Part shown: piece after piece, positions 2,055-63,999 of the stretch
How positions within the stretch are numbered: the stretch's first letter is position 1
Layout: every line of letters begins with the position of its first letter
IMG/VR virus record: IMGVR_UViG_3300026549_000041
Location: 64,001-128,000 of that record
Source: a virus
Taxonomy: Duplodnaviria; Caudoviricetes
Length of the DNA: 64,000 nucleotides
Strand: one strand, 5' to 3'
Made by a program: the position numbers and the translations under genes
Notes under the pieces: generated by a model
Told to the model about the DNA's origin: nothing
Seen by the model: only the letters and a program-made list of their open reading frames with translations
The model's database searches: none

Positions 2055-2354
2055 ATGAAAATTGAATTTTATATTCCAAAAGACGAAAAGATACCAACAG
2101 ACCTGAGACTCAAGGTGGATGGCGTTGATGTCTACTATGAGCGGATTAAAGGTGGTTTTCGATTTTATGTTTATGTCAATTCAGACGAAACGGCACTAGA
2201 GATTGTAAAAGCAATCGCAGAACAGATGATTTTTGACCATGACGAATCTCAACACGGTGTTTCGTGGCGTACCGTATCAATGGAAGTCGTAACGGATGAA
2301 TGGGGATTCCGAAGAATTGTTGATTGGAAATACAGAGTGAGAGACAGTTATTGA
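2055..2354 (+). CDS. hypothetical protein
   Basis: GGGAG RBS, 99 aa. Confidence 0.7.
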   Translation: MKIEFYIPKDEKIPTDLRLKVDGVDVYYERIKGGFRFYVYVNSDETALEIVKAIAEQMIFDHDESQHGVSWRTVSMEVVTDEWGFRRIVDWKYRVRDSY

Positions 2355-2367
2355 GGAAGGGAGAGAT

Positions 2368-2523
2368 ATGAACGAAGTACAAAATGAGTTAAATTACAGG
2401 CTTGAAGAGTTATGTTCTTGGATGTACGAGGACGATAAGAGAAAAATGCTTTTGGACTTGCTTGTTGTCATCGGATATTGGAGCGAGTTTGAGTTGAGGG
2501 AAGGAGAGACAGAATGTTTTTAA
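2368..2523 (+). CDS. hypothetical protein (51 aa)
   Basis: GGGAG RBS; open frame MNEVQNELNYRLEELC... Confidence 0.5.
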   Translation: MNEVQNELNYRLEELCSWMYEDDKRKMLLDLLVVIGYWSEFELREGETECF

Positions 2524-2909
2524 CAATTATTACAATGATAGTGGTAGCCGTGGGGGTGACTTTACTCCGCAAGGACGAATACGAAGAAAGAGTCCTTTTT
2601 GGATTAGGTCTTTTGTTTACTGTCGGCGGTGGGCTTATAGCGTTCACCATGGCAATTGGCATTATTTGCGCTCACGTAGGAGTGGATGCCCAAATCGAGG
2701 AGAACAGAATCGAATACGAATCGCTTTGCGAACGTCAGGAAATTATTAACTCAGAATATGAGGATGTGTCCAAGTCTGACGTAATCAAGGACATCGCTGA
2801 ATGGAACAAGAAAGTCTACAATCAGAAGCATTGGGCTTACAATCCTTGGACGAGTTGGTTTTACTCAAAGCGAGTTGCAGATGATATGGAGATGATTGAG
2901 AGGAAATGA
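2514..2909 (+). CDS. membrane protein
   Basis: two N-terminal TM segments, AAGGAG RBS. Confidence 0.75.
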   Translation: MFLTIITMIVVAVGVTLLRKDEYEERVLFGLGLLFTVGGGLIAFTMAIGIICAHVGVDAQIEENRIEYESLCERQEIINSEYEDVSKSDVIKDIAEWNKKVYNQKHWAYNPWTSWFYSKRVADDMEMIERK

Positions 2910-2920
2910 AGAAATAAATT

Positions 2921-3319
2921 ATGAGTGGAAGTATAATATTACTTTTAATAATAATGTGTATTTTATTGTTTTATTATTTAGATAAATTTATAACTTGGGT
3001 ATTATATTTGGACAAAACGACTCCAAAAATAACATTTAAAGCTTTTAAAAAAGTCTATTGTTTATATCCTTCTAAGTGGAGGTTAAGGGATACTTATGTT
3101 GATTACTATCCAAAAAAAGATTGTAATTATATATCTATTGATTTTAAATACTTTCATGATTATCTGTTATATTGTAGATTTAAAAAGAAAATAGAGAAAG
3201 ACCATGATTATGAAAAACAATTGAAAAATGAAAAGGAACTTATTGAATGTCTACAAAAAGATATTGATGCTTATAGGGAAGAGAATCTAAATGAAATAAA
3301 TAAAATTATAAATAAGTAA
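2921..3319 (+). CDS. membrane-anchored hypothetical protein
   Basis: N-terminal TM; first gene of the AT-rich backbone. Confidence 0.7.
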   Translation: MSGSIILLLIIMCILLFYYLDKFITWVLYLDKTTPKITFKAFKKVYCLYPSKWRLRDTYVDYYPKKDCNYISIDFKYFHDYLLYCRFKKKIEKDHDYEKQLKNEKELIECLQKDIDAYREENLNEINKIINK

Positions 3320-3697: not shown

Positions 3698-3780
3698 AGC
3701 GGTGTGATGGAAATGGATAGACATGACAGACTTTGACTCTGTTGCCATAAGGCTTGGGGGTTCAACTCCCCCCACCGTTG
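3698..3780 (+). tRNA. tRNA-Gln(TTG) with long variable arm
   Basis: AGCGGTG/CACCGTT acceptor; ACAGA-CTTTGAC-TCTGT anticodon arm; GCC-ATAA-GGC variable arm; GGGGG-TTCAACT-CCCCC T arm. Confidence 0.8.
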
Positions 3781-3785
3781 CTCAA

Positions 3786-3850
3786 GGGACATTAGCAGCA
3801 ATAGTTACAAGCATTTTATCAGGGGTAAAACAAGCGAAAAAGATGTCCTG
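3786..3850 (+). ncRNA. armless anticodon-stem-loop element A
   Basis: GGGACAT-TA-GCAGCAA...TTTTA-TCAGGGG-TAAAA...ATGTCCT-G. Confidence 0.6.
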
Positions 3851-3881
3851 AAATAATTATTAATTATAGGGGAGTGATTAA

Positions 3882-4418
3882 ATTGGAATAAATGAAGAGT
3901 GGAGACCTTTAATTTATAAAGATTTAGATTTATCAGATAGATTTTTAATTTCTAATACTGGTAAATTATATAGTAAAATAAGCAATAAAGTTTTAAAGAC
4001 ATGCATACAAAAAACTGGTTATGAAGCAATATGTGTTTCTCTTGGTGGAAGAGATAAAAAGAAAGTAATTAGAATTCATATAGCTGTAGCATGTATGTTT
4101 TGCGGAGGATATAAAAAAGATTTAGAAGTTAATCATATAGATGGAAATAAATTAAATAATAATAGTAATAATTTAGAATGGATTACTTATAAAGATAATA
4201 CTCATCATGCATATGCGACAGGTTTAGCTAAAGGTCACGGTGAAAGAATGATTAAACAAATTGATATAGATACAGGAGAAGAAATAGCTATTTTTAATAG
4301 TATTAAAGAAGCTCAATTATTTATTAAAGGAAAAATGACAAATAATATTTCTAATGCTGTTCATGGATATAATAAAACAGCTTATGGGTATAAATGGGAA
4401 TTTGTAGATAATAAATAA
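3882..4418 (+). CDS. NUMOD4-HNH-NUMOD1 homing endonuclease (probable ATT start)
   Basis: frame open from 3882: EEWRPL..FLISNTGKLYS (NUMOD4), EVNHIDGNKLNN..NLEW (HNH), FNSIKEA..TAYGYKW (NUMOD1). Confidence 0.85.
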   Translation: MGINEEWRPLIYKDLDLSDRFLISNTGKLYSKISNKVLKTCIQKTGYEAICVSLGGRDKKKVIRIHIAVACMFCGGYKKDLEVNHIDGNKLNNNSNNLEWITYKDNTHHAYATGLAKGHGERMIKQIDIDTGEEIAIFNSIKEAQLFIKGKMTNNISNAVHGYNKTAYGYKWEFVDNK

Positions 4419-4514
4419 TTAGAAATTGAACCTTGCAGTGAAGGTTGTAAAGGATAGAGAACATTTGATTTAGTTCCTGTTCATGAGTTAGGAAGCTGTA
4501 TTTAAAATAAAATA

Positions 4515-4618
4515 TACTACATCATGCCGTATACCATTGGGCGGTGTTATGGAGACTTGCGGTGGAGAAGTTCGAATCTTCTACTGTCCGTGGTACTGAC
4601 ATGATGTAGTAAACCGCA
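4515..4618 (+). ncRNA. long-stem RNA with tRNA T arm but no anticodon arm
   Basis: 12-bp perfect TACTACATCATG/CATGATGTAGTA; inner GGGCGGT/ACTGTCC; AGAAG-TTCGAAT-CTTCT. Confidence 0.55.
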
Positions 4619-4619
4619 T

Positions 4620-4684
4620 GGGATACGAACAGCAAATATATAAAAAAAAGACTGCAAATCTTTTACCAAGAGGTTAGTATCCTG
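4620..4684 (+). ncRNA. armless anticodon-stem-loop element B (Cys GCA loop)
   Basis: GGGATAC-GA-ACAGCAA...AAAGA-CTGCAAA-TCTTT...GTATCCT-G. Confidence 0.7.
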
Positions 4685-4695
4685 AAATAAATAAA

Positions 4696-4755
4696 GAGAC
4701 ACACATAGCAAATTTTTACAAGCACATTCTTTGAAAATGTATACTTTGTGTCCTG
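4696..4755 (+). ncRNA. armless anticodon-stem-loop element C (Gln TTG loop)
   Basis: GAGACAC-AC-ATAGCAA...ACATT-CTTTGAA-AATGT...GTGTCCT-G. Confidence 0.65.
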
Positions 4756-4760
4756 TATAT

Positions 4761-4844
4761 GGGTAGGTATGCCTAGAGGCGAGGGCGGCGGACTGTAAAT
4801 CCGTTACATCAGAAACATCGAAGGTTCGAGTCCTTCCCTGCCCA
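4761..4844 (+). tRNA. tRNA-Tyr(GTA)
   Basis: GGGTAGG/CCTGCCC; GCGGA-CTGTAAA-TCCGT; long variable region; GAAGG-TTCGAGT-CCTTC. Confidence 0.95.
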
Positions 4845-5011
4845 TTAAATGGAAGAAAGTAAATAAGAGTTTTTTAAAAAAATTATGATAATGGGTAGCA
4901 TCATAGTTCAACCTTATTTGTAAAATCTTCTTTTTGAAAAACTTATTGCCTAAAGTTACCTAATTAACTAGAGATGTTTCATTTTAAATTGAATTATATA
5001 AAGGAGATTGA

Positions 5012-5494
5012 ATGCCAATATGTGAAAAATGCAATGAAGAATTTCCAAATTGGATTAAAGTAGATGGTACAATGCATAATCTTAGCAAAAGAAAATATTG
5101 TACTAAGTGTTCGCCTTTTGGAATGCATAATACTAAGAAGTTAGTTCCTAAAAGTTACATATATAAATGTATAAAATGTGGTGATACCAATGAACAAAAT
5201 TTTTATAAAGGACGAAATACTATATGTAAAAAATGCAAGAATAAAGAAACATACGATTTATCTAGAGAGAAAAGAAATTATGCTATTGATTATTTAGGAG
5301 GAAAATGTTCATATTGTGGCTATGATAAATACAGATGTGCATTGGATATACACCATAAAAATCCAAATATAAAAGATAAGGGCTTCGCCAATATGCGACA
5401 TTGGTCTTATGAGAGAATTATAGAAGAGATAAAAGACTGTGTTCTTTTATGTAAGAACTGCCATTCTGCTCTTCATCATGGTGAATTAAAATAG
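5012..5494 (+). CDS. zinc-finger HNH endonuclease
   Basis: multiple CxxC; CSYCGYDKYRCALDIHH...CVLLCKNCHSALH. Confidence 0.85.
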   Translation: MPICEKCNEEFPNWIKVDGTMHNLSKRKYCTKCSPFGMHNTKKLVPKSYIYKCIKCGDTNEQNFYKGRNTICKKCKNKETYDLSREKRNYAIDYLGGKCSYCGYDKYRCALDIHHKNPNIKDKGFANMRHWSYERIIEEIKDCVLLCKNCHSALHHGELK

Positions 5495-5499
5495 TTTTT

Positions 5500-5571
5500 C
5501 GGGGTGTAGCCTAATGGTAAGGCACTTCGTTTGGGTCGAAGGGATTGCACGTTCAAATCGTGTCACTCCGA
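5500..5571 (+). tRNA. tRNA-Pro(TGG)
   Basis: CGGGGTG/CACTCCG; CTTCG-TTTGGGT-CGAAG; complete cloverleaf. Confidence 0.95.
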
Positions 5572-5615
5572 TTGGGGCAGTTCCCCGACATCTCTATTTA
5601 ATTTTTAAGTAGTTA

Positions 5616-5686
5616 GGGATACTGACAGCAATTATTTTACATCGCCAAATCTAAATTAGCACTTGATGTAGGTGCAGAGTATCCTG
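5616..5686 (+). ncRNA. armless anticodon-stem-loop element D (possible CTA loop)
   Basis: GGGATAC-TG-ACAGCAA...GCCAA-ATCTAAA-TTAGC...GTATCCT-G. Confidence 0.6.
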
Positions 5687-5703
5687 TCTCTTCAATTAAA
5701 TTA

Positions 5704-5779
5704 CTTCGCATAGCTCAGTTGGTTTTAGAGCACTTGACTTTTAATCAAGATGTCGAGAGTTCGAATCTCTCTGCGGAGA
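5704..5779 (+). tRNA. tRNA-Lys(TTT)
   Basis: CTTCGCA/TGCGGAG; CTTGA-CTTTTAA-TCAAG; complete cloverleaf. Confidence 0.95.
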
Positions 5780-5785
5780 TTAAAT

Positions 5786-5867
5786 GAAAGATTCAGTAAA
5801 TGGGCTGTAAATGGTTCGATTCCAAAAAACTCTTGGTGAGTAGACGGTTCAATTCCGTAATCTTTCT
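5786..5867 (+). ncRNA. degenerate type II tRNA-like element (possible Ser CGA)
   Basis: GAAAGAT/ATCTTTC; weak TGG-TTCGATT-CCA arm; ACTC/GAGT variable arm; ACGG-TTCAATT-CCGT. Confidence 0.5.
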
Positions 5868-5870
5868 TAT

Positions 5871-5958
5871 GGAAGATTGGCGAAACTAGTAGACGCAGAG
5901 GTCGCTCCTTGGAACATTAGCGCAAATGTTCGTGTTGGTGCAAGTCCAACATCTTCCG
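5871..5958 (+). ncRNA. type II tRNA-like RNA with aberrant anticodon arm
   Basis: GGAAGAT/ATCTTCC-G; D arm; GAGG-TCGCT-CCTT (5-nt loop); 7-bp variable arm; GTTGG-TGCAAGT-CCAAC. Confidence 0.7.
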
Positions 5959-5960
5959 TT

Positions 5961-6108
5961 CCCCTTGTTGGTGTATGTGTTGGGCGAATTTCTAAGAATG
6001 CCTAGGAGTTCTTATTAAATTCCATAGGAACACAGGATGGAGTTAACCACCATTTTATAGCATAACCCATGTGGTGTGGGATGGAGTAGTTCGAATCTGC
6101 ACAAGGGT
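5961..6108 (+). ncRNA. about 150-nt tRNA-like RNA with large multibranch insert
   Basis: CCCTTGT/ACAAGGG closing stem, GTAG-TTCGAAT-CTGC T arm, internal hairpins. Confidence 0.5.
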
Positions 6109-6113
6109 GTTAT

Positions 6114-6186
6114 TGGGGATTACCCAAGCGGTTATGGGGCTGTTCTTATAAAGCAGTTGCGGTGAGTTCGACTCTCACATCCCCAA
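6114..6186 (+). tRNA. tRNA-Ile(TAT)
   Basis: TGGGGAT/ATCCCCA-A; CTGTT-CTTATAA-AGCAG; GTGAG-TTCGACT-CTCAC. Confidence 0.9.
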
Positions 6187-6391
6187 CTAAAAAATCGGTC
6201 TATCTGGTCTTCGGACTCAAAAGATAGTAAAGCAAAGGATACGTCCTTAAAATATAACAATCATAAAAAACGGTAGTTGAAATACTAGTTAAGTAGACTA
6301 TTTTCACATAACACTTAATCCAGCTTGGAGATTGTTTGTGTGCCTTTATGAGTGGTATGTGAATTATATAATAGAAAGTTGGTGTTGCAAA

Positions 6392-7168
6392 TTGAGTTGT
6401 GGTATATATAAAATAGAAAATAAAATAAGCAGTAAAGTGTATATAGGACAATCAATTAATATTGAAAGAAGATGGAAGAGACATATTTCTTCAAGTAAAA
6501 ACGAAAATAATAAATATTATAACAGTGAATTATATATAGATTTTAGAAAATATAGTATTAATTCATTTAATTTTGAAATAATTGAATACTGTGAAAATGA
6601 TATAAAAATTTTACACGAAAGAGAGAAATATTGGATCGAGTATTATAAAGCATTTGAGTTTGGCTATAACAATTCGTTTGGAGCAGGAGGAACAAACAAA
6701 TTATATAAAAATTATTTTAAAATTGTAGATGATTTAAAAGATAATTTGTTAACTTATAAAGAAATTGCTAATAAATACAATATCTCAATGCAAACATTGA
6801 CCGCAATTAATACTGGAAGAGCTTGGTATCATAATATCAAATATCCTATAAGAGAATCTCATAAATCAGAATATCAAAAAATACAAGGTAAAAATGGATA
6901 TTATAAAATATGTGAAAGATGCGGAGGATATTGCGATTCACATAGTCAATCGAATTTATGCAGAAAATGTTTTAATGAAAAAAAGAAATCGTCGTTTATA
7001 AATGAATCAAAAATTGAAGAAATGAAAGAATTATTATTAACAAAATCTTATGATGAAATTGGAGTAATATATAATATCACTGAAGCTGGCGTACGAAAAA
7101 GATGTAAAATAATGGGACTCCCATTTAGAAGAAAAGATTTAAAAGAATGGCGCTTAAAAAATAAATAA
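6392..7168 (+). CDS. GIY-YIG homing endonuclease with HTH/zinc-finger C-terminus
   Basis: CGIYKIENKISSKVYIGQS..RW..H, EREKYWI, GYN; probable TTG start at 6392. Confidence 0.9.
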   Translation: MSCGIYKIENKISSKVYIGQSINIERRWKRHISSSKNENNKYYNSELYIDFRKYSINSFNFEIIEYCENDIKILHEREKYWIEYYKAFEFGYNNSFGAGGTNKLYKNYFKIVDDLKDNLLTYKEIANKYNISMQTLTAINTGRAWYHNIKYPIRESHKSEYQKIQGKNGYYKICERCGGYCDSHSQSNLCRKCFNEKKKSSFINESKIEEMKELLLTKSYDEIGVIYNITEAGVRKRCKIMGLPFRRKDLKEWRLKNK

Positions 7169-7190
7169 AATAATTTTATTGTTATATAAT

Positions 7191-7260
7191 AGAGGTGTAG
7201 TTTAATGATAGAACAATGGTTTTAAAATCATAGATGTAAGTTCAATCCTTTCCACTTCTG
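7191..7260 (+). pseudogene. tRNA-Trp-derived pseudo-tRNA with 6-nt anticodon loop
   Basis: AGAGGTG/CACTTCT-G Trp-like body; ATGGT-TTTAAA-ATCAT; D-loop GG lost. Confidence 0.6.
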
Positions 7261-17732: not shown

Positions 17733-17909
17733 ATGTTGGAAATTTTAGGAGAAGAGTGTGAACTGTTAAAGATTTGCAATTGTAAAACAGCGGCGTGTCG
17801 AGTTAGTCCACCAGATGAAGGGTGCTATTATTATAGATATTTTAAAAAAATAATTGAAAGAGTTGAAGAAATAAAAAATAAAGAAGGTAATGATACATGA
17901 GTTATTATA
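17733..17909 (+). CDS. small Cys-rich protein (58 aa)
   Basis: GAGGT RBS; MLEILGEECELLKICNCKTAACRV... Confidence 0.55.
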
Positions 17910-20900
17910 GTCTGCATTGTCATACGGAATACTCAAACATCCGTTTTCTCGACAGCACAAATAAACTAAAAGATTTAATTGACACAGCCATTTCTCTCAA
18001 AATGAAAGGAGTGGCTGTATCAGACCACGAAGCTCTTTGTGGATGGATTAAAGCAATTCAAATTCAGAAGAAACTTAAAGAACAAGGTTCTGATTTTCGA
18101 ATATTTCTTGGAGATGAAATTTATTTAGTTGATTCAATTGAAGATGTAAGAGACAACTATATTCCTAGACAAACAAAATTTTATCATTTTATTTTAATTG
18201 CCAAAGACGAAATTGGTGGTAAACAGATTCGTCAAATTAGTTCTAAAGCATGGGAAAATAGCTTTTATACTGGAAAAATGTGTAGAACTCCTATTGCGAA
18301 ACATCAATTAGAAAGCATTATTGGAGATGAAAAAGGACATATAATCGCACAGAGTGCATGTATCGGATCAGAGTTAGCACATTGGATACTTCAGGATAAT
18401 CCTATTAAGTGTTTAGAATTTATTGATTGGTGTCAGGATATCTTTTTGCCTGAAAATTTTTATTTAGAAATGCAACCTAACGATTGTGATGAACAGGTTA
18501 GAGTAAATCAGGTAATAATTAAAATAAGTGAACAATTAGATATTCCTTACATTATAACAACTGATGCTCATTATTTGTCTGCTGACCAAAGAGATGTTCA
18601 TACTGCTTATTTAAATAGTAGAGAAGAAGATAGTCGTGAGACTGGAGAATTCTATAGAACATGTTATCTTATGGATGCAGAAGAAATTCATCAATGGATG
18701 GATAAACAAATTGGTGCAGATAAAGTTGATATCGCTTTAGATAATACTTGTAAGATTGCTGATAAGATTGAATTTTTTGATTTGAATCATACTCAAATTG
18801 TGCCTAAAGTGCCTATTCCCGAATTTGAAATGAAACATTTTTTTTCAGAAGTTTATGATGAATGCGAGTATATAAAAAAATTTGCTTATTCAGATGATAT
18901 TCATGATAGGTATTTTTTATATTTAATTGAAAAAGGATGGTTGGAAAAAGAGTATAACGAAGATTTATCTAAAGAAGAAATAAACAAAATGCTGCATCGT
19001 ATTGATGTAGAATTAAAAGCTGTATGGTTATCTAGTGAAAATATACATGATAAAATTTCAAATTATTATATTACCGCATTATTTATTGAACAAAAAATAA
19101 TGTGGGAAGATGCAGAATCTTTGGTAGGTGTATCTAGAGGTTCAATTGCATCCTTTTATACAGCTTATTTGATAGGTCTTCAGCAGATAAATTCTTACAA
19201 ACAAAACATTCCATATTGGAGACACCTTAAATAATAATATTTCCTAAGTTTACTTGCCTTATAGAATGAGGTGAGTATGTTGAATGAAATAGATTTGAAA
19301 ATGATTACCATGAAGGAACTTGGGTTTAGTAGTGCAGAAATTGCGCAAATGTTTGGACGAAGTAAAAGTTCTGTCATTTGTGATGTACGTAATCAAACTG
19401 AACAAAAGATTGATAAAAGAATTTGGACAGTTGACGATTTGTTCTTTCATAATATTGATTCTGAAGCTAAAGCTTATATATTAGGTTTTATAATGGCTGA
19501 TGGGTGTATATATGATAAAAGATTAGAAATAACATTACAAGAGTCTGATAAATATATAGTGCAATTTTTCTTAAATGCGATGCATAGTAATAATCCATTG
19601 AGAAAAAATATTATTGAAGATAAAATATATTATAGTTTTGCGATACAAAGCGAACAGGTAATTGTAGATTTATATAAATTAAATGTTACAGAAAAAAAAT
19701 CTTTAACATTAAATCCTCCTCCAGATTATCTAATTCCTGATAATTTATACCATCATTTAGTAAGAGGATTTTTTGATGGCAATGGGAGTATATGGTTTGA
19801 TAAATCTGTTAACAATTATAAAATGAATATAGTATCTACAAAACAAGTATTAGAACATTTCAGAGATAAAATGGGATGGAGTCATAATACAATCAGACTA
19901 GCAAATAAAAAAGATGTACCTGTATATAGAATGGATTATAGTGGGAATAATTTGGTTGCAAAATATTTAAATCAGCTTTATGATGATGCATCTATTTATT
20001 TAAACCGAAAATATATTAAATATATAGATTGTAAAAATAGAAGTGGTAAGTAAATAAGGAAATATTATTAAGGGCTGTGCTTTGGTAACAAAGTATTGCG
20101 TAACTGGTGAACTTTTATCTAAAAGGTGTATATTCAACGCAATCAGTAAATACAGGAAATGGTATTGAATGAATATGCTAACAGGGGAAGTCTAAGTTTG
20201 AAAAAATACGATAATCCTGTGCCAAGCTTGTTTTATAACAAGAAGGTCAAACGACTATTATGTAGGGTGGAGATAGATACCATTCGAAGCGCCAGTTCTC
20301 CTTATATAAGGAGTGAGATATAGTCTAGCCTTTATAGAAATATAAAGTATAAGCGACATGAAAGTAGACCAGAAATGCCTAAGTAACATTGGGCTTTGGT
20401 GATGAACCGTGCCAACGGGTGTACAGTTTTAAATTGTGCTAACGGTATCAGTTAAATAAGCAAAGATGAATACGCTGACTAAGAGAGCCTACGGTCTTTC
20501 GTAAGATAGCAGGTAATACCGTGCGAAATAATTATCTGCTCTATAATTTCTAAAAAGGAGGAAATTATATGAATGGAGATTATAGAGTAATTGAATTAAC
20601 TAATAATATCAATAATAAAAAATATATTTTAATTACACAATCAGACCTTAAAGATGAATATTTTAAAGATGAAATACTAAAAAGATTAATTACTATTGCC
20701 CTTCCAGAAAATGTATCAGAAGAAGTATTGATATCTGGTACTAAAGAAGAATGTTATCAATATTATAATCAGTATAGAAGTGATAATAGAGTTATATATA
20801 ATCCTGAATATTACAATATTCCAGAATCACAATCTGAAATTGAAGATTATCAATTATATATTGATAAAATAAATAAAGAAAATTATAAACAATGGAGGCG

Positions 20901-23900
20901 TAATAATAATTATAAATATCAGACAGAACTTTTTAAACAACGACAAAGTGTGTATTCTAAAGGTGAAAACAATCCAATGTATGGTAAAAAGCATTCTGAA
21001 GAATCAAAAAAGAAAATGTCTGAAAATCGTAAAGGTCTTACTTGTGGAGAAAAGAATGGTAATTATGGTAATACAGGAGAAAAAGCAAAAAATGGAAAAC
21101 CTGTTTATCAATATGAAGATTCTGATATGACCAAATTAATTCATAGATTTAATACTATGGAGCTTGCTTTAGAGTATTTAGGATTAAAAGGTCATTCAGG
21201 AATAATAAAAGCAATTAAAAATAAAGAATTATATAAAGGATATTATTGGAGCAGATAAGGAAACGTGTAACGACTATTCCGTAAGGAAGTACAATCAGAG
21301 ATAGGCACTGATTGGAAGTGTCACCACTAGCACCATTAGTGCTAGGAGAGATAGTCTAGACCCGCTGTTAAATCAGCGTTAAAGTACCAAGAAATTGGGG
21401 GTGTGACAGGATGTTGATATTGATTCAGAAAAATCTAAAAGACAAGCTATCATTGAAGCAACAAGAAAGAATTTTGGTGAGGACAAGGTTCTAAATATTT
21501 GTGCATTTAGAACAGAGGGAGCAAAATCAGCTATTTTAACTAGCGCTAGAGGATTGGGAGTTAGTAATGATGAAGCCCAATATATTGCTAGTTTAATTCC
21601 TTCTGTACGTGGAAAATTAACACCGCTTTCTGTAATGGTATATGGAGATGAAGATAATAAACCAAATATAGAATTTATTAATGAATGTAAGAAATATAAT
21701 AGATTGATTGAAACGGCATTAAGTATTGAAGGAATGGTTTGTGGAAGAACAATTCATGCATCGGGAGTTATCATTTTTGAAAATCCCTATTATGAATTAA
21801 ATTGTATGATGAAAGCCACTAACGGACAGCCAACAACCCAATGGGACATGGATGATTCAACATATGCTGGTGGATTAAAATATGATTATTTAACAATAAA
21901 TAATCTTGATGCTATGCACCAATGTATGAATTTGTTAGTTGAATATGGTTATATTGATTGGCAAGGTTCATTATTAAAAACTTATAATAAATATTTTCAT
22001 CCAGATGTATTAGATTATTCTTCTGAAAAAATGTGGAAAATGGCTGAAAATCATGAGATAGTAAATCTTTTCCAATTTATGACTGACGTTGGTGCTCAAG
22101 CTGTAAAAAAAATCAAACCACGTTCACTTACAGAACTTGGTGTTGCTAATGCAGTTATGCGTCTTATGAGCGGAGAATCTGGTGGGGAACAGCCTCTTGA
22201 TATATATGTTAAATATAAAAATAATATTCAAGAATGGTATGATGTAATGGATAAATACCATCTGACCTCAGAAGAAAAAGATATAATAAAAAAATATCTT
22301 GAACATGCTTCTGGTATGTCTACTATGCAAGAAGATGTTATGAATCTTTCAATGGATAAAAATATTTCTAACTATTCGATGAAAGAAGCGAATGTTCTTA
22401 GAAAACTAATTGCAAAAAAGAAAGTTGCTCTTCATAAACAGGCAGAAGAAAACTTTTATAAAAAGGGTTTAGAAAATGGAACATCTCAAAATATGTTGGA
22501 TTATGTATGGAAAGAGTGTGTTAAACCTCAGTTGCAATATTCATTTTCTCTCCCTCATATCCTTGGATATTCAACAATTGCTGTTCAAGAAATGAATATG
22601 GCATATAAATATCCTATTATTTATTGGAATTGTGCCAATCTTATTGTTGATAGTATGTCTGACGAAGAGCTTGATGGCAGCACGAATTACGGTAAAGTAG
22701 GTATTGCAATTAATAATATGATCCAATCTGGTATTAATGTAACCCCTCCTTTAATTAATGAAGCTAAGTTTGGATTTACTCCAGATGAAAAAAATAATCG
22801 TATTATCTTTGCATTAAAAGCTATGAATGGTATTGGAGATGACATCGCTCAATCAATTATTCAAAATCGTCCTTTTAAATCTATGGAAGATTTTGCTACA
22901 AGAATGATTGATACAAAGATTATTAAAAACTCACAAATGGTTAAGCTGATAAAAGGTGGTTGCTTTACTGAGATTGATTCTGAAGATAAAACAGAAACCA
23001 TGAAGTGGTATTTGTCTAAGTATTGCATTAATCCTGTTGCTAGTTTGACGCTATCTCAATTTAATAAAATTGTAGAGCATAACCTGATACCAGAAGAGTT
23101 AAATCTTGCAGTTAAAATGGTTAATTTTAAAAAATATGTTCTCGATGATGAAGGATTATACGAAAAATGGATTGACCCGACTAAACCTAAAATTCCAAAA
23201 AAAGGTTATCATGATGGACATTATATTTTAGATGAACCTTCTCAAGAATTTTTTAAAGAACATTTTACTGAAGATAGTATTGTAGATGTAGTTGGTGGAT
23301 TTTATGTGTTATCTGAAAAGAAATTCATTAAAGAAATTGATAAGAAGATAGAACCGTTAAAAGAATGGTTTAATTCAGATGATGCTATTAATAAATATAA
23401 TCAAGCTTTATTTGACGAGGCGTGGAATAAACATGCAAATGGTACAACTGATGCTTGGTCTATGGAATCTTTAACATACTATGATAAAGACCATGAATTA
23501 AAAAATACTCCTGAAGAAATATATGGTATTGTTAATTTCTTTGAACTTCCAGAAGAACCGATTGCATATGAATTTTATACAAGATATGTGGATGGTAAAC
23601 CAAAAGCAGTACCTAAATATACTATTTTTCGTATTGCAGGAACGGTTGTTCAAGCTGATAATAATCATCATTCTGTTGCATTATTAACTACACATGGACT
23701 TGTAAATATTAAATTTAGTAAAGGTCATTATGCTTTTTATAATAAAACAATTTCAGAAATTGGTGAAGATGGTAAAAAGAAGACAATTGAAGGTAGTTGG
23801 TTAAAACGTGGAAATAAATTATTAGTAAGTGGTTATAGAAGAGGAGAACAATTTATTCCTTGGATATACAATGACACAATTTATAAGCATCGAATTAATT

Positions 23901-23962
23901 TGATTGAAAAAATAAACGAAGACGGAACATTAGAATTAAAAGCTGAAAGAGCAAAGGTATAA
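17897..23962 (+). CDS. dnaE: DNA polymerase III alpha subunit, three exons: 17897-19227, 20356-20380, 21410-23962 (1302 aa spliced)
   Basis: PHP motifs LHCHTEYS, SDH, TTDAHY; VGVSRGS; spliced junction YWRHL-HESRPEMP-DVDID restores the conserved catalytic segment; HASGV, KYDYL, YSFSLPH. Confidence 0.93.
19228..20355 (+). mobile_element. group I intron 1 of dnaE
   Basis: U.G P1 with distal TTAAGGG; AACAGGGGAAG/AATCCTGTG; P7 ACGACTA/ATAGTC; terminal G; removal restores frame. Confidence 0.9.
19277..20053 (+). CDS. intron-encoded double-motif LAGLIDADG endonuclease
   Basis: AYILGFIMADG and LVRGFFDGNG, N-terminal HTH, GAGGTG RBS. Confidence 0.9.
   Translation: MLNEIDLKMITMKELGFSSAEIAQMFGRSKSSVICDVRNQTEQKIDKRIWTVDDLFFHNIDSEAKAYILGFIMADGCIYDKRLEITLQESDKYIVQFFLNAMHSNNPLRKNIIEDKIYYSFAIQSEQVIVDLYKLNVTEKKSLTLNPPPDYLIPDNLYHHLVRGFFDGNGSIWFDKSVNNYKMNIVSTKQVLEHFRDKMGWSHNTIRLANKKDVPVYRMDYSGNNLVAKYLNQLYDDASIYLNRKYIKYIDCKNRSGK
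20381..21409 (+). mobile_element. group I intron 2 of dnaE
   Basis: P1 GCCT|AA-GTAACA-TTGGGC; GCTAACGGTAT/AATACCGTG; AACGACTA/GATAGTC; terminal G before GAT GTT GAT. Confidence 0.9.
20569..21258 (+). CDS. intron-encoded NUMOD3 protein with degenerate GIY-YIG N-terminus
   Basis: YRVIELTNNINNKKYILI, GENNPMYGKKHSEESKKKMS, C-terminal YKGYYW. Confidence 0.8.
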   Translation: MNGDYRVIELTNNINNKKYILITQSDLKDEYFKDEILKRLITIALPENVSEEVLISGTKEECYQYYNQYRSDNRVIYNPEYYNIPESQSEIEDYQLYIDKINKENYKQWRRNNNYKYQTELFKQRQSVYSKGENNPMYGKKHSEESKKKMSENRKGLTCGEKNGNYGNTGEKAKNGKPVYQYEDSDMTKLIHRFNTMELALEYLGLKGHSGIIKAIKNKELYKGYYWSR

Positions 23963-23963
23963 A

Positions 23964-26213
23964 ATGAGTGTAAAAGTTAAAGCTGAAATAGAAGGAATTA
24001 GATTTTATAGAGACCAATGGGGCATCATTGTATGCTCCATTGATAAAGTATTAAAAGGTGATTTTATCGGTGATAAAAATGGAATGATTTTTAAAGGCAC
24101 TATGCCTGAACCAGTATTGGGTGCGACTTATATAATCATTGCTGATTATGTAGAAGACCCTAAATGGGGTAGACAATATAATATTAAATCAATTTATAGT
24201 GATGTGTCATTTGATAAAAATGATAAAAGCGGTAGACAAAAATTTTTGCTCAATCTTTTTACTCCTAGTCAAGTACAAGCTATGTATGATGTATATGATG
24301 ACCCATTTTCTGTATTAGATGCAGAAGATGTAGAAAAGCTTGTGCAAATTAAAGGCTGTGGTATTAAAACAGCAGATTTGTGGATTCGTAAATTTAAAAA
24401 GAATATTAATATTGCAAGAATTTTTGTTGAGCTTGAAGATTATGGTTTAACTAATAATATGATTAAGCGTTTGATGGACAGATATAATTCACCAGATTTA
24501 ATTATAGAAAAAGTTAAAACAAATTCATATGTTCTTGTTAATGAAGTAGATGGCATTGGTTGGAAAAGAGCAGATGAAATTGCACTTGCTGGTAATATCA
24601 AACCTGATAGTCCTATGAGAATTGGTGCTTATATAGTTTATTATCTTAATTTATGTGGTGAAAATGGTAATTCGTGGATTACTCCAGATGAATTATTGGG
24701 AGCTATTCTTGATAATCTTGGGGAAGAAATCCCCGATGAAAATATTACTATGGCTATTAGAGACCTTGGTAATAAATTATGGTGGAATGAGGATAAAGAT
24801 AAGATTGGCTTATCTAAATATTATAAGATTGAATATAGAGTTGCTGAAGAGTTGATTAGAATCAGAAATGCTGAATCCAATATTTATTGTAATGATTGGA
24901 GAATGCGTATTGAGCATCTTGAAAGAGTACAAGGATGGGATTTTACTGAAGAACAGATGAATGGTATTGAAGCTGTTTTAAATAATAATGTTACTGTTAT
25001 CCATGGTCTGGCAGGAACTGGAAAAACTTCTGTAGTTTCAGGCGTTCTTGAGGCTCTTAATAATTATTCAAGTGTAATGTGTGCATTGTCTGGAAGAGCC
25101 GCTTCAAGAATGAGTGAGATTACTGATAAAACAGGATATACAATTCATAGACTTCTTGGTTATCCTAAAGGGGCAAATGAATATCAAGGATTTGAATTTA
25201 ATCAAGATAATAAATTACCTTATAATCTATATATTCTTGATGAAATTTCAATGGTCGATGCTAAAATCTTTTATTATTTATTAAGAGCAATTCCAGATGG
25301 TGCTAAATTAATTTGTCTTGGAGATTCGGGACAATTGGAAAGTATCGGATGTGGTAATGTAGCTTATGATATGATTCATTCTGCTGAAATTCCTACAATT
25401 GAATTAACCAAAATCCATAGACAAGCCGCTAAATCAGCTATTATTACACAGAGTGTCGCTGTTAGAAATAGTAAACAAATAGTACCCAAAGATTGGGTTG
25501 GCACTGAGACAAGAGGAGAACTTCAAGACCTAGAACTTCACTGTTATTCTGATAGTAGTAATACATTTTATGAAGTAATGGAAATTTTTTCTAAACTGAT
25601 GGCTCAAAAAGATTTTAATATTATGGATTGCCAAATTATTGTTCCAATTAAAACCAGAGGGGACGCTTGTACTTATAAAATAAATAATACAATTCAAGAA
25701 TTATATAATCCTGCTTCAAAGAATAAAAAAGAAATAACAAGGTTATCAAATAATAATCCTTTTATTCTTAGAGAAGGAGATAAGGTAATTAACACAGTTA
25801 ATAATTATAGACTACAAACCCCAATCTATAATGGTAATATTGGGACAATTAAATCAATCAGTTATAATGAAGAATTAGATTCAAGAATTATTACAATTGA
25901 TTTTATAGGAATTGGGAATGTCGATGTTCCCGAAGATGCATGGAATGGGATTGAACTGGGATATGCTATTACAGTTCATAAATACCAAGGCAGTCAGAGT
26001 AAATATGTGATTTTTGGTTTGGATTTTTCGTCATATGCTCTTCTCACTAGAGAGCTTGTTTATACTGGAATTACCAGAGCACAGAAAAAATGTTATCTAA
26101 TTTGTCAAACAGGGGCACTAAGATATGCAACTGCACAACAAGGTGTTTCTACAAAACAAACCCACCTTCAGGATTGTTTATATGAAGTAGCACATCCTAA
26201 GTTGATTTTTTAA
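23964..26213 (+). CDS. recD2: RecD2-like SF1B helicase
   Basis: HhH GIGWKRAD, GLAGTGKT, LDEISM, GDSGQL, IHRQA, YAITVHKYQGS, YTGITRA. Confidence 0.92.
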   Translation: MSVKVKAEIEGIRFYRDQWGIIVCSIDKVLKGDFIGDKNGMIFKGTMPEPVLGATYIIIADYVEDPKWGRQYNIKSIYSDVSFDKNDKSGRQKFLLNLFTPSQVQAMYDVYDDPFSVLDAEDVEKLVQIKGCGIKTADLWIRKFKKNINIARIFVELEDYGLTNNMIKRLMDRYNSPDLIIEKVKTNSYVLVNEVDGIGWKRADEIALAGNIKPDSPMRIGAYIVYYLNLCGENGNSWITPDELLGAILDNLGEEIPDENITMAIRDLGNKLWWNEDKDKIGLSKYYKIEYRVAEELIRIRNAESNIYCNDWRMRIEHLERVQGWDFTEEQMNGIEAVLNNNVTVIHGLAGTGKTSVVSGVLEALNNYSSVMCALSGRAASRMSEITDKTGYTIHRLLGYPKGANEYQGFEFNQDNKLPYNLYILDEISMVDAKIFYYLLRAIPDGAKLICLGDSGQLESIGCGNVAYDMIHSAEIPTIELTKIHRQAAKSAIITQSVAVRNSKQIVPKDWVGTETRGELQDLELHCYSDSSNTFYEVMEIFSKLMAQKDFNIMDCQIIVPIKTRGDACTYKINNTIQELYNPASKNKKEITRLSNNNPFILREGDKVINTVNNYRLQTPIYNGNIGTIKSISYNEELDSRIITIDFIGIGNVDVPEDAWNGIELGYAITVHKYQGSQSKYVIFGLDFSSYALLTRELVYTGITRAQKKCYLICQTGALRYATAQQGVSTKQTHLQDCLYEVAHPKLIF

Positions 26214-42402: not shown

Positions 42403-42475
42403 GCTGGCATAGCACAGTCGGTAGTGCGTCGCATTGGTAGTGCGGAGGTCACGAGTTCGATTTTCTTTGTTCTGT
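42403..42475 (+). pseudogene. tRNA-Thr(GGT) with broken 3' end
   Basis: intact D arm and TCGCA-TTGGTAG-TGCGG arm; 3' T-stem and acceptor strands mismatched. Confidence 0.75.
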
Positions 42476-52122: not shown

Positions 52123-54672
52123 TTAAATTGTTACCTTTACATCAATGGTAAGTTTTTTGTCAACTAAATCACCATCAATATAAATTACTTTTGCTCCTTT
52201 ACCACCAGCAGAAGGAGTCCCAGTAGTTGTTGGGTTTCCGTCTTTATCACGGTAATACCAATTATATGTCCCTGTATATGTATCAGTTGCAACATTCCAT
52301 TTTGTTGTATATTTATAAAGTGTTACAGTCTTTGCCGTTGAATCAAGTAAATAACAGTAATCACCATTTTTATTACCAGATGTGGGCAATGTATCTACAA
52401 ATCTTTCTGATTTAATAGGGTCAAGCTCTTTACCATTTCTATATACCATTGCATAAATAGCACCAACACCATTTCCATTAACAAGCTTGTCACCAACAGA
52501 TGAAAGAAGTGTAACTTGAATTGGGTCTTGTTTATCTAATACAGACATATACTGTATATAATCTTCATCGTTATAATGTGCTATACATTGAAAAGATGCG
52601 TAACCATCTACCATAGAGTTTGTAACAGTTAATGTTTTTGCTGTTTGCCCACTAATTGTCGAATAAGAACCATTTTCAAACTTTTTCCATATATATGTGG
52701 CTGAATTAGTTACATCAGTTGCACCATCAATTAATGCAGCTTCAATTGTTACAGTACCAGTACCATTTTCAATTATATTTCCTCCATTAGGCGTACCGAG
52801 TTGAAGAATAACTGCATTAATTCCATTCGTACCATCTTTACCTTGTCTTGCTTTACCCCAGCTATAATCATATGTAACTGTTTTATTTGCTTCTGTAAAT
52901 CTAAATGTAAACGTAATAACACCATTATCATTTGAAATAGCTGTTCCAGCTGTAATAACATATTGAATAGAACCATCAGCACTTGTTGTAGCATTTGTAA
53001 CGGTTGGTGTAATTCCAAAAAGACTTGGTGGATTAACCACTGTTGTTGCCACTTTAGTTGTTCCTTGATATCCAGCAAATGGTATAAGAATTGTATAAGT
53101 CGATGTTACTTTTCCATCACCATCTACAGGAATACCATCATAAGAATTTCCTACAATAATATTTAATGCATCAGTTCCATCATCACCTTTATCACCTTTA
53201 CCACCAGTCTGACCATCTGTTGTTACTGCAACAGTTTGTATATCAAGTTGTTTTGATGTGCCGCCAGATTCAAATAAAACACATACAATAGATGTACAAT
53301 TTTTACCTGTTACAGGAGTATAATCACGATATCCATCATTTTCGTCAGAACTTGATGTATATTTTGCTTCAGTAGATGGAGTTATATCTTTTGCTAAAAT
53401 ATTTTCATATATTTTAAATCTGCCTTTATAAATACTCTTTGTCTGATTTTGTGTTTGATACGAATAAAACCTGACAGAAGCAGGTGTAAAAGTCGGCGTA
53501 TTTCCAATAGTTTTATTTAAAGCCAATGTGCTTGGCTCAAGACTATAAACAATGGGAGATTGACCGTCAGCACCACTTTCAATTTTAATTACTGAAAATT
53601 GTTTTAAGATTGGGTCATGCCCATTCTTTGTGGCTGTAAAATTTATAGTGCCAGTTGAACCAACCATATTTGTAATTGCCACAGTATCATTCGCAACAGT
53701 TGTAGTAGAAGTATTAACAGTAAGATTATTAGTATCATAAGATACATTAATACTCCATTGACTAGTAATATCTTCCCCACTTTCATAAATAATAATTCTA
53801 GAAACTGCGTCAGAATAATCAGCAACTCCAGAAGAATTAACTGGTATCATTTGGTCTTCATTTGTTAAAACAGCAGAAATAGTATCTGTGCCAGCCGCAC
53901 CATCTCTAAGTTTTGTAATTGTATGATAATCATATATATCATTATTAGTTGTAACAAGTTTAATTACACATTTATCATTTGTAAAAACAGAATGACTTTC
54001 ATTAACAGTTAATGTTGGACTAGTTCCACTATTTGGATAAGTAGCCCAAGAACCATTAGATTGTTGATATTGCCATGCGCTAATATTTACACCAGAACCA
54101 GTTACTCTACCATTTAAAGTTATTGTTGATGTACCTTTAATTGTTCCATCACCATTATATTTAAAAACACTTTCTCCAGTAATAGTAGCAGATTTAACAC
54201 TAGAAGCCTGTTTTGTCATTGTGAATGTAATTTCACCTTGTGCAGTTAAAGCCTGACTAAGAGTCGGCTCTTGATAAGACACAGCTACAATATATGTAAT
54301 CATTGTACTATTTTCAGTAAATTTATTTTGATTTACAACGAGTGTTCCTTTAGGTATGGTTTCACCACCGACTTCCATAGTGCCATCACTAATAGTCTCA
54401 CCTGTTGTAAGAGCAGTTACAGCTCCAATTCCTTCTCGCCTAGACCAAGTTACAGTTACATTATTATCGCTTGTAGACAATTGTTCACCACCATACCAAA
54501 TAGATGGAGAGAGTATAAGATTATTTGACCCCCAGTTTGGTGTAAATGAATTTTGGTCTGGACTATATATTATACTTTGTGGCAGATTTGATTTTGGATA
54601 TATCGAAAGTTCCCCGACATCTGTAACATCCACTATTGAAATACTGCCATAAGATACAGTTGTTGTTGCCAT
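52123..54672 (-). CDS. minor tail/baseplate protein
   Basis: GSISIVDVTD N-terminus, Ig-like beta repeats, short collagen linkers. Confidence 0.75.
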   Translation of the reverse strand: MATTTVSYGSISIVDVTDVGELSIYPKSNLPQSIIYSPDQNSFTPNWGSNNLILSPSIWYGGEQLSTSDNNVTVTWSRREGIGAVTALTTGETISDGTMEVGGETIPKGTLVVNQNKFTENSTMITYIVAVSYQEPTLSQALTAQGEITFTMTKQASSVKSATITGESVFKYNGDGTIKGTSTITLNGRVTGSGVNISAWQYQQSNGSWATYPNSGTSPTLTVNESHSVFTNDKCVIKLVTTNNDIYDYHTITKLRDGAAGTDTISAVLTNEDQMIPVNSSGVADYSDAVSRIIIYESGEDITSQWSINVSYDTNNLTVNTSTTTVANDTVAITNMVGSTGTINFTATKNGHDPILKQFSVIKIESGADGQSPIVYSLEPSTLALNKTIGNTPTFTPASVRFYSYQTQNQTKSIYKGRFKIYENILAKDITPSTEAKYTSSSDENDGYRDYTPVTGKNCTSIVCVLFESGGTSKQLDIQTVAVTTDGQTGGKGDKGDDGTDALNIIVGNSYDGIPVDGDGKVTSTYTILIPFAGYQGTTKVATTVVNPPSLFGITPTVTNATTSADGSIQYVITAGTAISNDNGVITFTFRFTEANKTVTYDYSWGKARQGKDGTNGINAVILQLGTPNGGNIIENGTGTVTIEAALIDGATDVTNSATYIWKKFENGSYSTISGQTAKTLTVTNSMVDGYASFQCIAHYNDEDYIQYMSVLDKQDPIQVTLLSSVGDKLVNGNGVGAIYAMVYRNGKELDPIKSERFVDTLPTSGNKNGDYCYLLDSTAKTVTLYKYTTKWNVATDTYTGTYNWYYRDKDGNPTTTGTPSAGGKGAKVIYIDGDLVDKKLTIDVKVTI

Positions 54673-61900: not shown

Positions 61901-63999
61901 TGATATAATTCGCCACGCTTATTAGTAAGGTCAATTAATGCTTGCTCACTCGCTACGGCTTTGTTGTAATAATTCTGATATTCCTGAATTTTATCCCATA
62001 AATCGCTATCGGTTACATCTTCAATACGGAAAGCACCATCTCTAATTTTCTGTTTCCAAGATTCGCTCAGATTAATAGAATTGGCTTTATTAATATATGT
62101 CTGATATGCTTTACGTTGGTCAGATATTTCTTGTGTAACAAGTCTTAAATTATCTATAATTGAATCATTTCTATCTTCCCAAGTATTATAAGTGCTACCT
62201 ATAATCTTATCTAAATCAGAAATTCTCGCTTCAATTCTGCCAATCAGAATCTCAACTTCATCTAATGTATTCTTAGTTTCTTTTGCATCTTTAGAAGAAG
62301 AGTTTCCTCCACCAGAGCCACCAGAGCCACCAGAACCTCTTGAACCGCCTGAACTACCACTAGAACCTCTTGAAGAACCTCCCATACCAGTAGAAGTCTT
62401 GCTAGGTCTAAGGGCACCAGAAGACGAACCATGAGAATAAGCAGTACCATTTGCAAACCCGACTAAATGTCCACGACCTTTATTAGAAGTAACATAACCA
62501 TTTTCTAATAATTCTTTACTTTGTTTATGATTAAAAACACTTTGTATTTATTTTAGTTCGCTACACTAAAACGACTGATAAACAGTCCTCTATATTTCTA
62601 CAGAGAATAGACTATATCTTTATGTAAATATTATATTCATGTTTAATTCTTCATTTATTTCATTATAAAATTTTGATTTGGTAAAATCATCCATATTATC
62701 CTCCGATTAATATATTTAAATATAATATTTACATAATCACCTTTTCCAACTACCAATCGCTTGTAGTTGTACTTCCTTGCGGAATAGTCGTTGAGCGTTT
62801 TCCTATTCGGAACTTCGCTGCTGATTGCCCATTGTTACATTTATATATTTTTTAAACATTCACATTTAGATTTATTTCATTCTTATGTTGTAGTATATAT
62901 AACTTTAGGGGTTTCCAGCAATTAAATGATTTATTTTATATACATCACTGTATATAGACACTATTTTATTAATGTCACCCTTTTTAAGATTTACAAATTC
63001 AGCACCATCATCACCAACAGTAAACCAATTACCATCACGGACAACTATCTCAGTTCCTAACTCACCTGTAAGGGCAGTTTGGTCATCGGGAAGTCCCCAT
63101 TTACCACCAGCATATGCATGATTAGAAACTACAGAGCCTTTAACAAATGCAGTACCATATGCATGAGCTGTACCATTTGCAAAATGCGCCCTATAATTTG
63201 ATGCTAATTCATTAGCTTTGTTAATAGCTGATTGAATACCAGATTTAAGAGCACTTAACCCAGAAGAAGAAAAATTAGCAACAACACTTACAGTTTTACT
63301 TTTAACAGAATCAATTGCACTTTTCATAGCTTGCGCATCATTAATTACTTGATTTTTACCTGCAAGCATAACACTAGGAGTGGCTTTTTTATTATCTAAT
63401 TCTTTTGTCTGTTTATTTACATCATCGCTACCTTTTTTAAATTCTTTTGAATCCATCCCAACTTCGGGTTTAGGATTTTGTTTATCAATTTTCTTATTCT
63501 CTTCTTGAACATGTTTTGCACCTTTATCAAAAGGAGAAGTGTCCATTGACGTAGTTACAACCTGATTAACTTGTTCTTCTGATATGGTTTTATTAATTTG
63601 TGTATTTGTTGTTGTGGTATCTTTAGGCTTGGGAGTATCGCCAGTTGTTTTTACATTTATATGAAGCTCTCCCTTTTTGGCTAATTCTAATAATTCTTCA
63701 CCAGTTGCGTCTGGTTCAAGCCCCCATTTTTGTTTAACTTCTTCAGGTAAATTAGCAATTGTGTTTAATTCTTCTTTAAACTCTTCATCAGCATCCCAAT
63801 TAAAATGAATATCTTTATGTTGAGCTGCATAATCTAATTTAGAATTAATATCATCAACAACTTTTTCAGCTGCCATAAATTGGTCAACTGTAATCGAATC
63901 ACCACTAATATTTGATTTATTTAATAAATTTACTCTATACTGTAATTGTGCTAATAATTGGTCTAAATATTGAACTTGAGTATCATCTACATTTGGACG
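58951..63999 (-). CDS. tape measure protein, 3' part; exons >63999-62972 and 62539-58951
   Basis: long coiled coil, FANGT/GELG.E motifs, spliced LKKGDI-VFNHKQS, C-terminal cell-wall-binding repeats; frame open to window end. Confidence 0.85.
59370..60510 (-). repeat. tandem ~20-aa cell-wall (choline/glucan-type) binding repeats in tape measure C-terminus
   Basis: repeated TGWQ..GKWYY..S.G.M units. Confidence 0.85.
62540..62971 (-). mobile_element. group I intron in tape measure gene (432 nt, endonuclease lost)
   Basis: P1 GACAT|TAATAAAATAGTGTC; AATTGCTGGAAAC; GGCAATCAGCAGC; CAACGACTA; AAGATATAGTC; terminal G. Confidence 0.92.

Follow-up and report, generated by a model that had tools for sequence, protein, structure and literature searches.

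Two group I introns around a 25-nt micro-exon in the dnaE gene of a rumen phage

Group I introns that share a very short exon have been described in both phage and bacterial genes. In orf142 of the Staphylococcus phage Twort, which contains three group I introns, the second and third introns are separated by a 23-nt exon (Landthaler & Shub 1999, cited through PMC10136302 and PMC3073962), and in the 23S rRNA gene of Coxiella burnetii a 34-nt exon separates the introns Cbu.L1917 and Cbu.L1951 (Hicks et al. 2011, cited through PMC10136302). Exon skipping occurs in both cases (PMC10136302, PMC3073962). A 2025 study of Bastillevirinae phages described polymerase and terminase genes that contain two or three introns each, a small exon with an intron on either side and, in one gene, skipping as the dominant outcome (PMC11878797). 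Here we describe a comparable arrangement in dnaE, the DNA polymerase III (Pol III) alpha gene of a ~143-kb rumen phage. The DNA analysed is a stretch of 64,000 nt (the window), bases 64001-128000 of the 143.1-kb viral record IMGVR_UViG_3300026549_000041, whose completeness is estimated at 96%. We are confident that two independent group I introns, each with an endonuclease ORF, interrupt this gene at sites 25 nt apart, and that both are removed exactly in vivo.

The architecture is already known from Twort (23-nt exon) and Coxiella (34-nt exon) and leaves the understanding of group I introns unchanged; the differences here are the C-family DnaE host, the combination of dissimilar introns with different nuclease families, and rumen metatranscriptome evidence in vivo. 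Like orf142, dnaE is a phage protein gene with tandem IA-type introns, in which an exon of ~23-25 nt has to serve one intron as its 3′ exon and the following intron as its P1 substrate. Unlike dnaE, orf142 encodes a tail tube protein, its introns 2 and 3 are close copies, and exon skipping has been demonstrated. The rumen phage introns differ from each other, with open reading frames (ORFs) in P1 and P6 that belong to different nuclease families, and skipping is not seen in contigs, which drop rare forms. The Coxiella locus resembles dnaE in having two unrelated group I introns around a very short exon at a functionally critical site of an essential gene, but it is a bacterial rRNA gene and hence has no reading-frame constraint. 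Phages with intron-bearing family A polymerases likewise have several endonuclease-bearing group I introns in replication genes, and RNA data were needed there to reveal a small internal exon, whereas the rumen phage gene is a C-family dnaE and the evidence is metatranscriptomic rather than from culture. A full-text literature search for group I introns in phage Pol III alpha returned nothing relevant. The locus (Table 1) offers a clean natural case, backed by RNA data from in vivo, in which a 25-nt exon of an essential gene is shared by two different group I ribozymes at a distance of one codon from the catalytic aspartates; it also lends itself to studies of how exon skipping is avoided in tandem ribozymes.

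Table 1. Features of the interrupted dnaE gene, in window coordinates
Feature	Position	Strand	Description
dnaE exon 1	17897..19227	+	PHP domain and start of the Pol III alpha catalytic domain; from the ORF list, Pfam, and tblastn against relatives
Intron 1	19228..20355	+	Group I, 1128 nt; follows U, ends in G; ORF in P1 loop
Intron 1 ORF	19277..20053	+	258 aa; probable LAGLIDADG-type homing endonuclease with N-terminal helix-turn-helix-like region; GAGGUGA upstream
Intron 1 ribozyme core (P3-P9)	20104..20347	+	RF00028, 53.5 bits, E 5e-13, model positions 1-253
Micro-exon	20356..20380	+	25 nt, A CAT GAA AGT AGA CCA GAA ATG CCT; codes (L)HESRPEMP
Intron 2	20381..21409	+	Group I, 1029 nt; follows U, ends in G; ORF in P6 loop
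Intron 2 P3	20398-20404/21319-21325
Intron 2 P4	20442-20448/20516-20522		Also in the minimum-energy fold
Intron 2 P6	20523-20525/21264-21266		GCG/CGU; closes the ORF loop
Intron 2 ORF	20569..21258	+	229 aa; homing endonuclease with NUMOD3 DNA-binding region; AAGGAGG upstream
Intron 2 P7	21272-21277/21351-21356		GACUAU/AUAGUC; within the R and S consensus elements
Intron 2 P7.1 and P7.2	21278-21314		UCC/GGA and CAAUCAG/CUGAUUG; P7.2 at 21292-21298/21308-21314
Intron 2 P8	21327-21333/21339-21345
Intron 2 P9	21363-21367/21374-21378		Followed by P9.1
dnaE exon 3	21410..23962	+	Rest of the catalytic domain, fingers, HhH; starts GAT GTT GAT

The dnaE reading frame and its joined RNA

Exon 1 ends in CAC CT, and its unspliced frame (ORF 17897-19234) stops at a TAA at 19232-19234. 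Pfam places PHP (E 5e-25) and DNA_pol3_alpha profile positions 8-94 in exon 1, and profile positions 103-259, DNA_pol3_finger and HHH_6 in exon 3; the gap of 8 residues in the DNA_pol3_alpha profile matches the coding capacity of the micro-exon. When the three exons are joined by script, they form one 1302-residue frame that contains WRHLHESRPEMPDVDID (also given as WRHLHESRPEMPDVDIDSEK and PYWRHLHESRPEMPDVDIDSEKSKRQ) and holds the DnaE/C-family domain set of PHP, palm with two adjacent Asp, fingers and HhH. Of 14 related viral loci used for comparison, three intronless ones (L007-L009, 73-80% identical overall) have an uninterrupted WRHLHESRPEMPDVDIDSEKSKRQ that equals the spliced window protein letter for letter over both junctions, and in these and the more distant L010, L011 and L016-L019 the polymerase is a single uninterrupted ORF of 1300-1309 aa. 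The initial annotation, made from the window sequence, had placed the boundaries at 19227, 20356-20380 and 21410, had derived the spliced catalytic segment from them and had proposed an alignment with intronless phage DnaE as a check; on direct reading the coordinates hold to the base, and the alignment with L007-L009 is continuous across both junctions. It had also noted that skipping the micro-exon would shift the frame, which is correct because 25 is not a multiple of three.

Alignment of an intronless homologue to Taq Pol III alpha (2hpi, 3e0d) pairs the two leading Asp residues of DVDID with Asp463 and Asp465, in agreement with the annotated placement of the D-V-D of exon 3 at the active site. 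By position they correspond to residues 401 and 403 of E. coli Pol III alpha. In Pol III alpha structures both pairs are the catalytic aspartates. Intron 2 therefore lies directly 5′ of the codon for the first catalytic Asp, between Pro and Asp (MP↓DVDID), and intron 1 lies within a Leu codon eight codons before the catalytic motif. Two other readings of the insertions were rejected: they are not inteins, as both hold stops in the host frame and the first one shifts it, and joined RNA forms and ribozyme cores are at odds with a dnaE split by free-standing endonuclease genes.

Public runs with window sequence are nearly all bovine gut or rumen metagenomes; at least half of the window's words are present in 16 runs, and 20 rows from 12 studies contain any of the window. 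Contigs were compared over 18800-21900 from two metatranscriptome (RNA) libraries, X2 and X3, and from two probable DNA runs of other studies, X10 and X16. The joint 19227>20356 is present exactly in contigs of four runs (depth 57 in X2 and 44 in X3), and the joint 20380>21410 is exact in the RNA-library contigs (depth 113 in X2 and 64 in X3). These are precisely the junctions that the initial annotation had predicted for spliced RNA. Taken with the reading frame, the Pfam gap and the intronless homologues, this fit greatly exceeds what chance would give. The X2 and X3 exon contigs (2.2 and 5.1 kb) show no differences from the window. In the RNA libraries the intron contigs have a depth of 164-189 versus 88-106 for the exon contigs, as expected if excised intron RNA accumulates.

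The DNA runs contain two kinds of allele. The majority allele in X10 and X16 is intronless, ~3.5% diverged, and has A in place of T at 20380, and a minority allele has both introns, with an unbroken 1362-nt contig (19156-20517) whose span takes in the end of exon 1, all of intron 1, the micro-exon and the start of intron 2. A search for the micro-exon pattern in metagenome and viral contigs returned DNA contexts with both introns or with neither, and nothing else. Both introns occur in L006 and L012, at the same places, and in L024, which is an independent record of 4.1 kb with 94% identity; five distinct contigs have neither. All intron-bearing alleles read CAC CT↓A ... CCT↓GAT, and all intronless assembled contigs read CAT TTR ... 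CCA GAY; because of these synonymous differences, the intron-bearing alleles have U at position -1 and stronger P1 partners.

The existence of intronless alleles in X10, X16 and several contigs, together with the fact that RNA libraries can contain DNA, raises the question of whether the joined X2 and X3 contigs derive from the DNA or mRNA of an intronless strain, with no splicing and with insertions that simply break dnaE in the window strain. However, all intronless DNA alleles seen are at least 3.5% off the window and have A at the last base of the micro-exon, whereas joined contigs from the RNA libraries have T at 20380 and run on into exons identical to those of the window. Because of this T and the window-identical exons, the joined form is assigned to the intron-bearing strain and is hence spliced RNA. 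The excess of intron over exon depth also argues against an intronless source, as does the loss from the RNA-library graph of the intron 1-micro-exon-intron 2 contiguity found in DNA runs, and a broken replicative polymerase is implausible in a phage found across 12 studies. An intronless origin of the joined contigs is thus extremely improbable. Both introns are excised and the exons ligated precisely at the RNA level in the window's own strain.

Two dissimilar group I introns

In line with the initial annotation, each intron has group I hallmarks, namely a U at -1 paired with G in P1, a terminal G, and R and S core elements. The class assignment stands on different grounds for the two: intron 1 scores 53.5 bits with the Rfam group I model RF00028 (curated cut-off 50 bits), whereas intron 2 is assigned by anatomy and homology and has no significant covariance-model score. 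For recognition of the 5′ splice site, each ribozyme would use a P1 helix of its own that contains a U.G wobble. In intron 1, ACA-CCU↓U (19222-19228) pairs with AGGG(C)UGU (20071-20078), with U19227 in the wobble, and a perfect 13-bp extension of P1 (19233-19245/20057-20069) closes the ORF-bearing loop. P4, P6, P7 (GACUAU/AUAGUC), P8, P9 and a 2-bp P9.0 were checked and are complementary, and inspection of the Rfam alignment reveals an insertion at the place of P7.1/P7.2. The terminal guanosine is G20355, with the contig joint directly after it; the 3′ splice site would apparently be set by this G and P9.0 alone. The homologous core in L006 scores 53.7 bits with RF00028.

In intron 2, the micro-exon sequence AAA(U)GCCU↓A (20373-20381) pairs with UGGGCUUU (20390-20397), with U20380 in the wobble. 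The corresponding hairpin (20368-20400) has a folding energy of -11.8 kcal/mol (z -3.3) and takes up at most 13 of the 25 micro-exon bases. A 7-bp P10 is formed between UAACAUU (20384-20390) and GAUGUUG (21410-21416), with which exon 3 begins. The exon strand of P1 would thereby consist of the final 8-13 nt of the micro-exon, and P10 would align exon 3. The terminal guanosine, G21409, is again followed directly by the contig joint. The R and S consensus elements are GUGUAACGACUAUU and GAGAUAGUCUAG, and inspection places the hairpins P7.1 and P7.2 between P7 and the 3′ strand of P3, a trait of subgroup IA (phage type). An alignment of five ORF-deleted intron 2 relatives with MAFFT and RNAalifold aligned the 5′ domain well and misaligned the 3′ half, and the helices were therefore checked singly.

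Homologues of intron 2 were found in two settings. An ORF-less homologue of 336 nt (L014:7130-7465) is 77% identical over a 110-nt core, scores 26.3 bits with RF00028 (E 9e-5, below the cut-off), and covaries in P6 (GCG/CGU versus GCC/GGU). An exact search of viral contigs for a 25-nt core motif of intron 2 returned the Fusobacterium phage Fnu1 (MK554696.1) as the sole match. The ribozyme in the nrdD gene of Fnu1 is homologous to intron 2, with a 74-nt core segment 86% identical, the same R and S elements and a covarying P4 (ACGGUAU/AUACCGU in intron 2 versus ACAGUAU/AUACUGU in Fnu1). Unlike intron 2, it lies as a single intron in an anaerobic ribonucleotide reductase gene and has a clear GIY-YIG ORF near its 5′ end rather than in P6. 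GenBank lists two 'anaerobic ribonucleoside-triphosphate reductase' coding sequences in this region (L020, ~52470-53905) with a GIY-YIG gene between them; given its R and S elements and the 86% identical core segment, the spacer is a group I intron that the record leaves unannotated.

Rfam scans of the whole window (gathering threshold), of 19100-21550 (E<=10) and of four related loci detected neither intron, and intron 1 was detected only in an isolated scan of ~360 nt or in a profile search of genome contigs. The misses on long stretches reflect insensitivity of the filters and are no sign that the introns are absent. For annotation this is a warning: such a polymerase shows up as two or three fragments plus 'endonucleases', and long-stretch Rfam scans miss both introns.

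The two intron ORFs probably belong to different nuclease families. The intron 1 ORF matches phrog_4645 'endonuclease' (E 4e-45), scores 19.9 bits with Pfam LAGLIDADG_3, under the cut-off of 22.5 bits, and has weak matches in the PDB to the intein endonuclease region of 7qss (E 0.0016) and to I-MsoI. Compared with L006, the protein is 74% identical, the flanking ribozyme parts 98-99% and the exons 95%, a pattern that would reflect either faster evolution of the ORF than of its intron or an exchange of the ORF. The intron 2 ORF matches NUMOD3 (41.6 bits, cut-off 20.4 bits) and phrog_314 'homing endonuclease' (E 2e-8). Pfam gives no GIY-YIG match in this ORF, and the N-terminus reads GDY...YIL with no evident catalytic Arg. 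Its atlas neighbours carry GIY-YIG/SegE_GIY-YIG, which is a lead only; the BLASTP alignment with the Fnu1 GIY-YIG nuclease is limited to the NUMOD3 region, and an AlphaFold model made with no alignment supplied (mean predicted local distance difference test score 41) is unusable. The N-terminus is possibly a divergent, degenerate GIY-YIG-like domain.

Possible partly spliced forms, helper proteins and homing

Two further X2 contigs bear on the course of splicing. One, of 1188 nt, consists of 30 nt of exon 1, intron 1, the micro-exon and 5 unaligned nt, and the other, of 1089 nt, consists of 5 unaligned nt, the micro-exon, intron 2 and 30 nt of exon 3. A k=31 unitig graph was simulated for every combination of four conceivable molecules, in which exon 1 (E1) or intron 1 (I1) precedes the micro-exon (ME) and intron 2 (I2) or exon 3 (E3) follows it. 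Only the combination of E1-ME-I2, I1-ME-E3 and E1-ME-E3, without I1-ME-I2, reproduces the X2 lengths (1188, 1089, 55 and 55) and compositions, and the X3 set (1188, 1084, 60 and 55) equals the simulated outcome when rare E1-ME-I2 words drop out. The unspliced I1-ME-I2 context, continuous in the DNA runs, is missing from the RNA graphs, although contigs cannot prove absence. These graphs suggest that both partly spliced forms exist and that either intron can go first. The form that still holds intron 2 is rarer, and intron 2 seems to be removed more completely. No strict splicing order is indicated, since both partly spliced forms seem to occur.

Several points weigh against two group I introns excised exactly in vivo. 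On the side of the RNA, the run evidence consists of Logan contigs rather than reads, which puts levels, ends and rare forms beyond measurement; X2 and X3 represent one rumen sample only; DNA carry-over in the RNA libraries cannot be directly excluded; and the 5 unaligned bases with which contigs end were deduced rather than seen. On the side of the structures, the 3′ half of intron 2 alone scores 10.6 bits (E 1.8), and intron 2 lacks a full Rfam match because its 690-nt ORF sits in P6. Two extra hairpins between its P3 and P4 (20407-20418 and 20421-20439) depart from the textbook layout, and because of them this part of the structure is tentative. The initial annotation had given the micro-exon a dual role, as 3′ exon of intron 1 and as a P1 strand of intron 2. 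The first role agrees with the joined contigs, in which the micro-exon follows exon 1, and the second is supported by the pairing 20373-20381/20390-20397. No P10, a pairing that is common but not universal in group I introns, was found between intron 1 and the micro-exon, there being no complement to the micro-exon start (ACAUGAAAG) beside the guide sequence. Our preferred account nonetheless remains that both introns are excised in vivo, which would yield the 1302-residue polymerase.

Both ribozymes are presumably autocatalytic. A different possibility is that they are group I introns that work inefficiently alone and need a protein helper in vivo. The helper could be a chaperone or helicase for RNA supplied by the host, or the LAGLIDADG-type protein of intron 1 in the role of a maturase. 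Among the spliced genes of Bastillevirinae phages, half are reported to splice in infected cells only (PMC11878797). No P10 can be detected for intron 1, whose P1 loop holds an ORF of 800 nt. The I1-ME-E3 form can be detected too, and the X2 depths of 57 at the exon 1-micro-exon joint versus 113 at the micro-exon-exon 3 joint suggest that intron 1 is slower, but contig depths are poor measures. There is no direct counter-evidence; both cores have complete catalytic elements, and we consider dependence on a helper unlikely.

The intron pair might also act as a switch, in which exon skipping or a forced splicing order tunes the amount of full-length polymerase, as proposed for Twort orf142. The guide sequences, GGGCUGU in intron 1 and GGGCUUU in intron 2, are nearly alike, and each 5′ exon has CCU at its end. 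This could favour mis-pairing, as tandem introns engineered to have similar splice-site recognition elements are prone to skipping (PMC10136302). There are documented cases of skipping in Twort, with its 23-nt exon, in Coxiella, with its 34-nt exon, and in phage SIOphi (PMC10136302, PMC11878797). In the rumen phage, however, a skipped product would be frame-shifted, without the catalytic domain and of no evident use, and the apparent presence of both partly spliced forms speaks against a strict order. The exon-skipped joint 19227>21410 is absent from the contigs of four runs, which is uninformative either way, as contigs drop rare forms. A regulatory switch is accordingly rated very improbable, and we retain removal of both introns by their own ribozymes as the more plausible course.

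Both nucleases would presumably promote homing of their introns. I-TevI-type nucleases (GIY-YIG plus NUMOD3) cut ~23-25 nt upstream of the insertion site of their own intron. The 25-nt spacing could therefore have been set by nuclease geometry, in that the intron 2 enzyme would cut exactly at the insertion site of intron 1. If so, intron 1 would shield its allele from the intron 2 nuclease, both introns would be co-converted after one break and so home as a unit, in keeping with the both-or-none pattern in DNA, and the length of the micro-exon would be dictated by the nuclease. Close linkage alone also accounts for the both-or-none pattern, and the intron 1 site has no CNNNG motif of the I-TevI cleavage type, which leaves the cut-site idea without sequence support. 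For these two reasons we give the geometric explanation little credence.

Other introns in the phage and its relatives

A different group I intron lies inside the GYGFNK(A/S)H motif of dnaE in three relatives (L014:7130-7465, L013:6515-7704 and L015:7130-8092, corresponding to window position ~22520). It is ORF-less (336 nt) in L014 and has ORFs of 292 aa in L013 and 216 aa in L015. If its junction matches the intronless L010 (TQRGYGFNKAH), this intron ends in A and not G, which would be unusual; the junction is backed by a P1 (CGUGGCU/GGUCACG) and a 4-bp P10. In L014, an additional insertion of ~1260 nt (3922-5181) interrupts the PHP domain; in the numbering of the window protein it falls between residues 171 and 174. 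With no fewer than four insertion sites among relatives, dnaE is a hot spot for introns in this clade of rumen phages. The polymerases of L013-L015 are ~36% identical to that of the window over residues 1-819 and 82-85% identical over residues 830-1302, downstream of their intron, and this mosaic suggests recombination at or near the intron site.

Elsewhere in the window, a further RF00028 match at 62588-62981 (-) scores 50.7 bits, over the cut-off. Outside the window, matches of 38.2, 36.9 and 36.7 bits lie in the same phage genome (G000:C1) at 25152-25410 (-), 2743-2988 (-) and 2206-2394 (-), respectively; only ~350 nt separate the last two, which share a strand and may form a second tight pair. 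The phage genome is unusually intron-rich. Rfam also lists six tRNA genes, five of them clustered at 3698-7260 and one at 42408-42469 of the window. Near 42 kb the guanine-cytosine (GC) skew flips from positive to negative, with a local rise in GC content to 43%, which probably marks a switch in gene strand.

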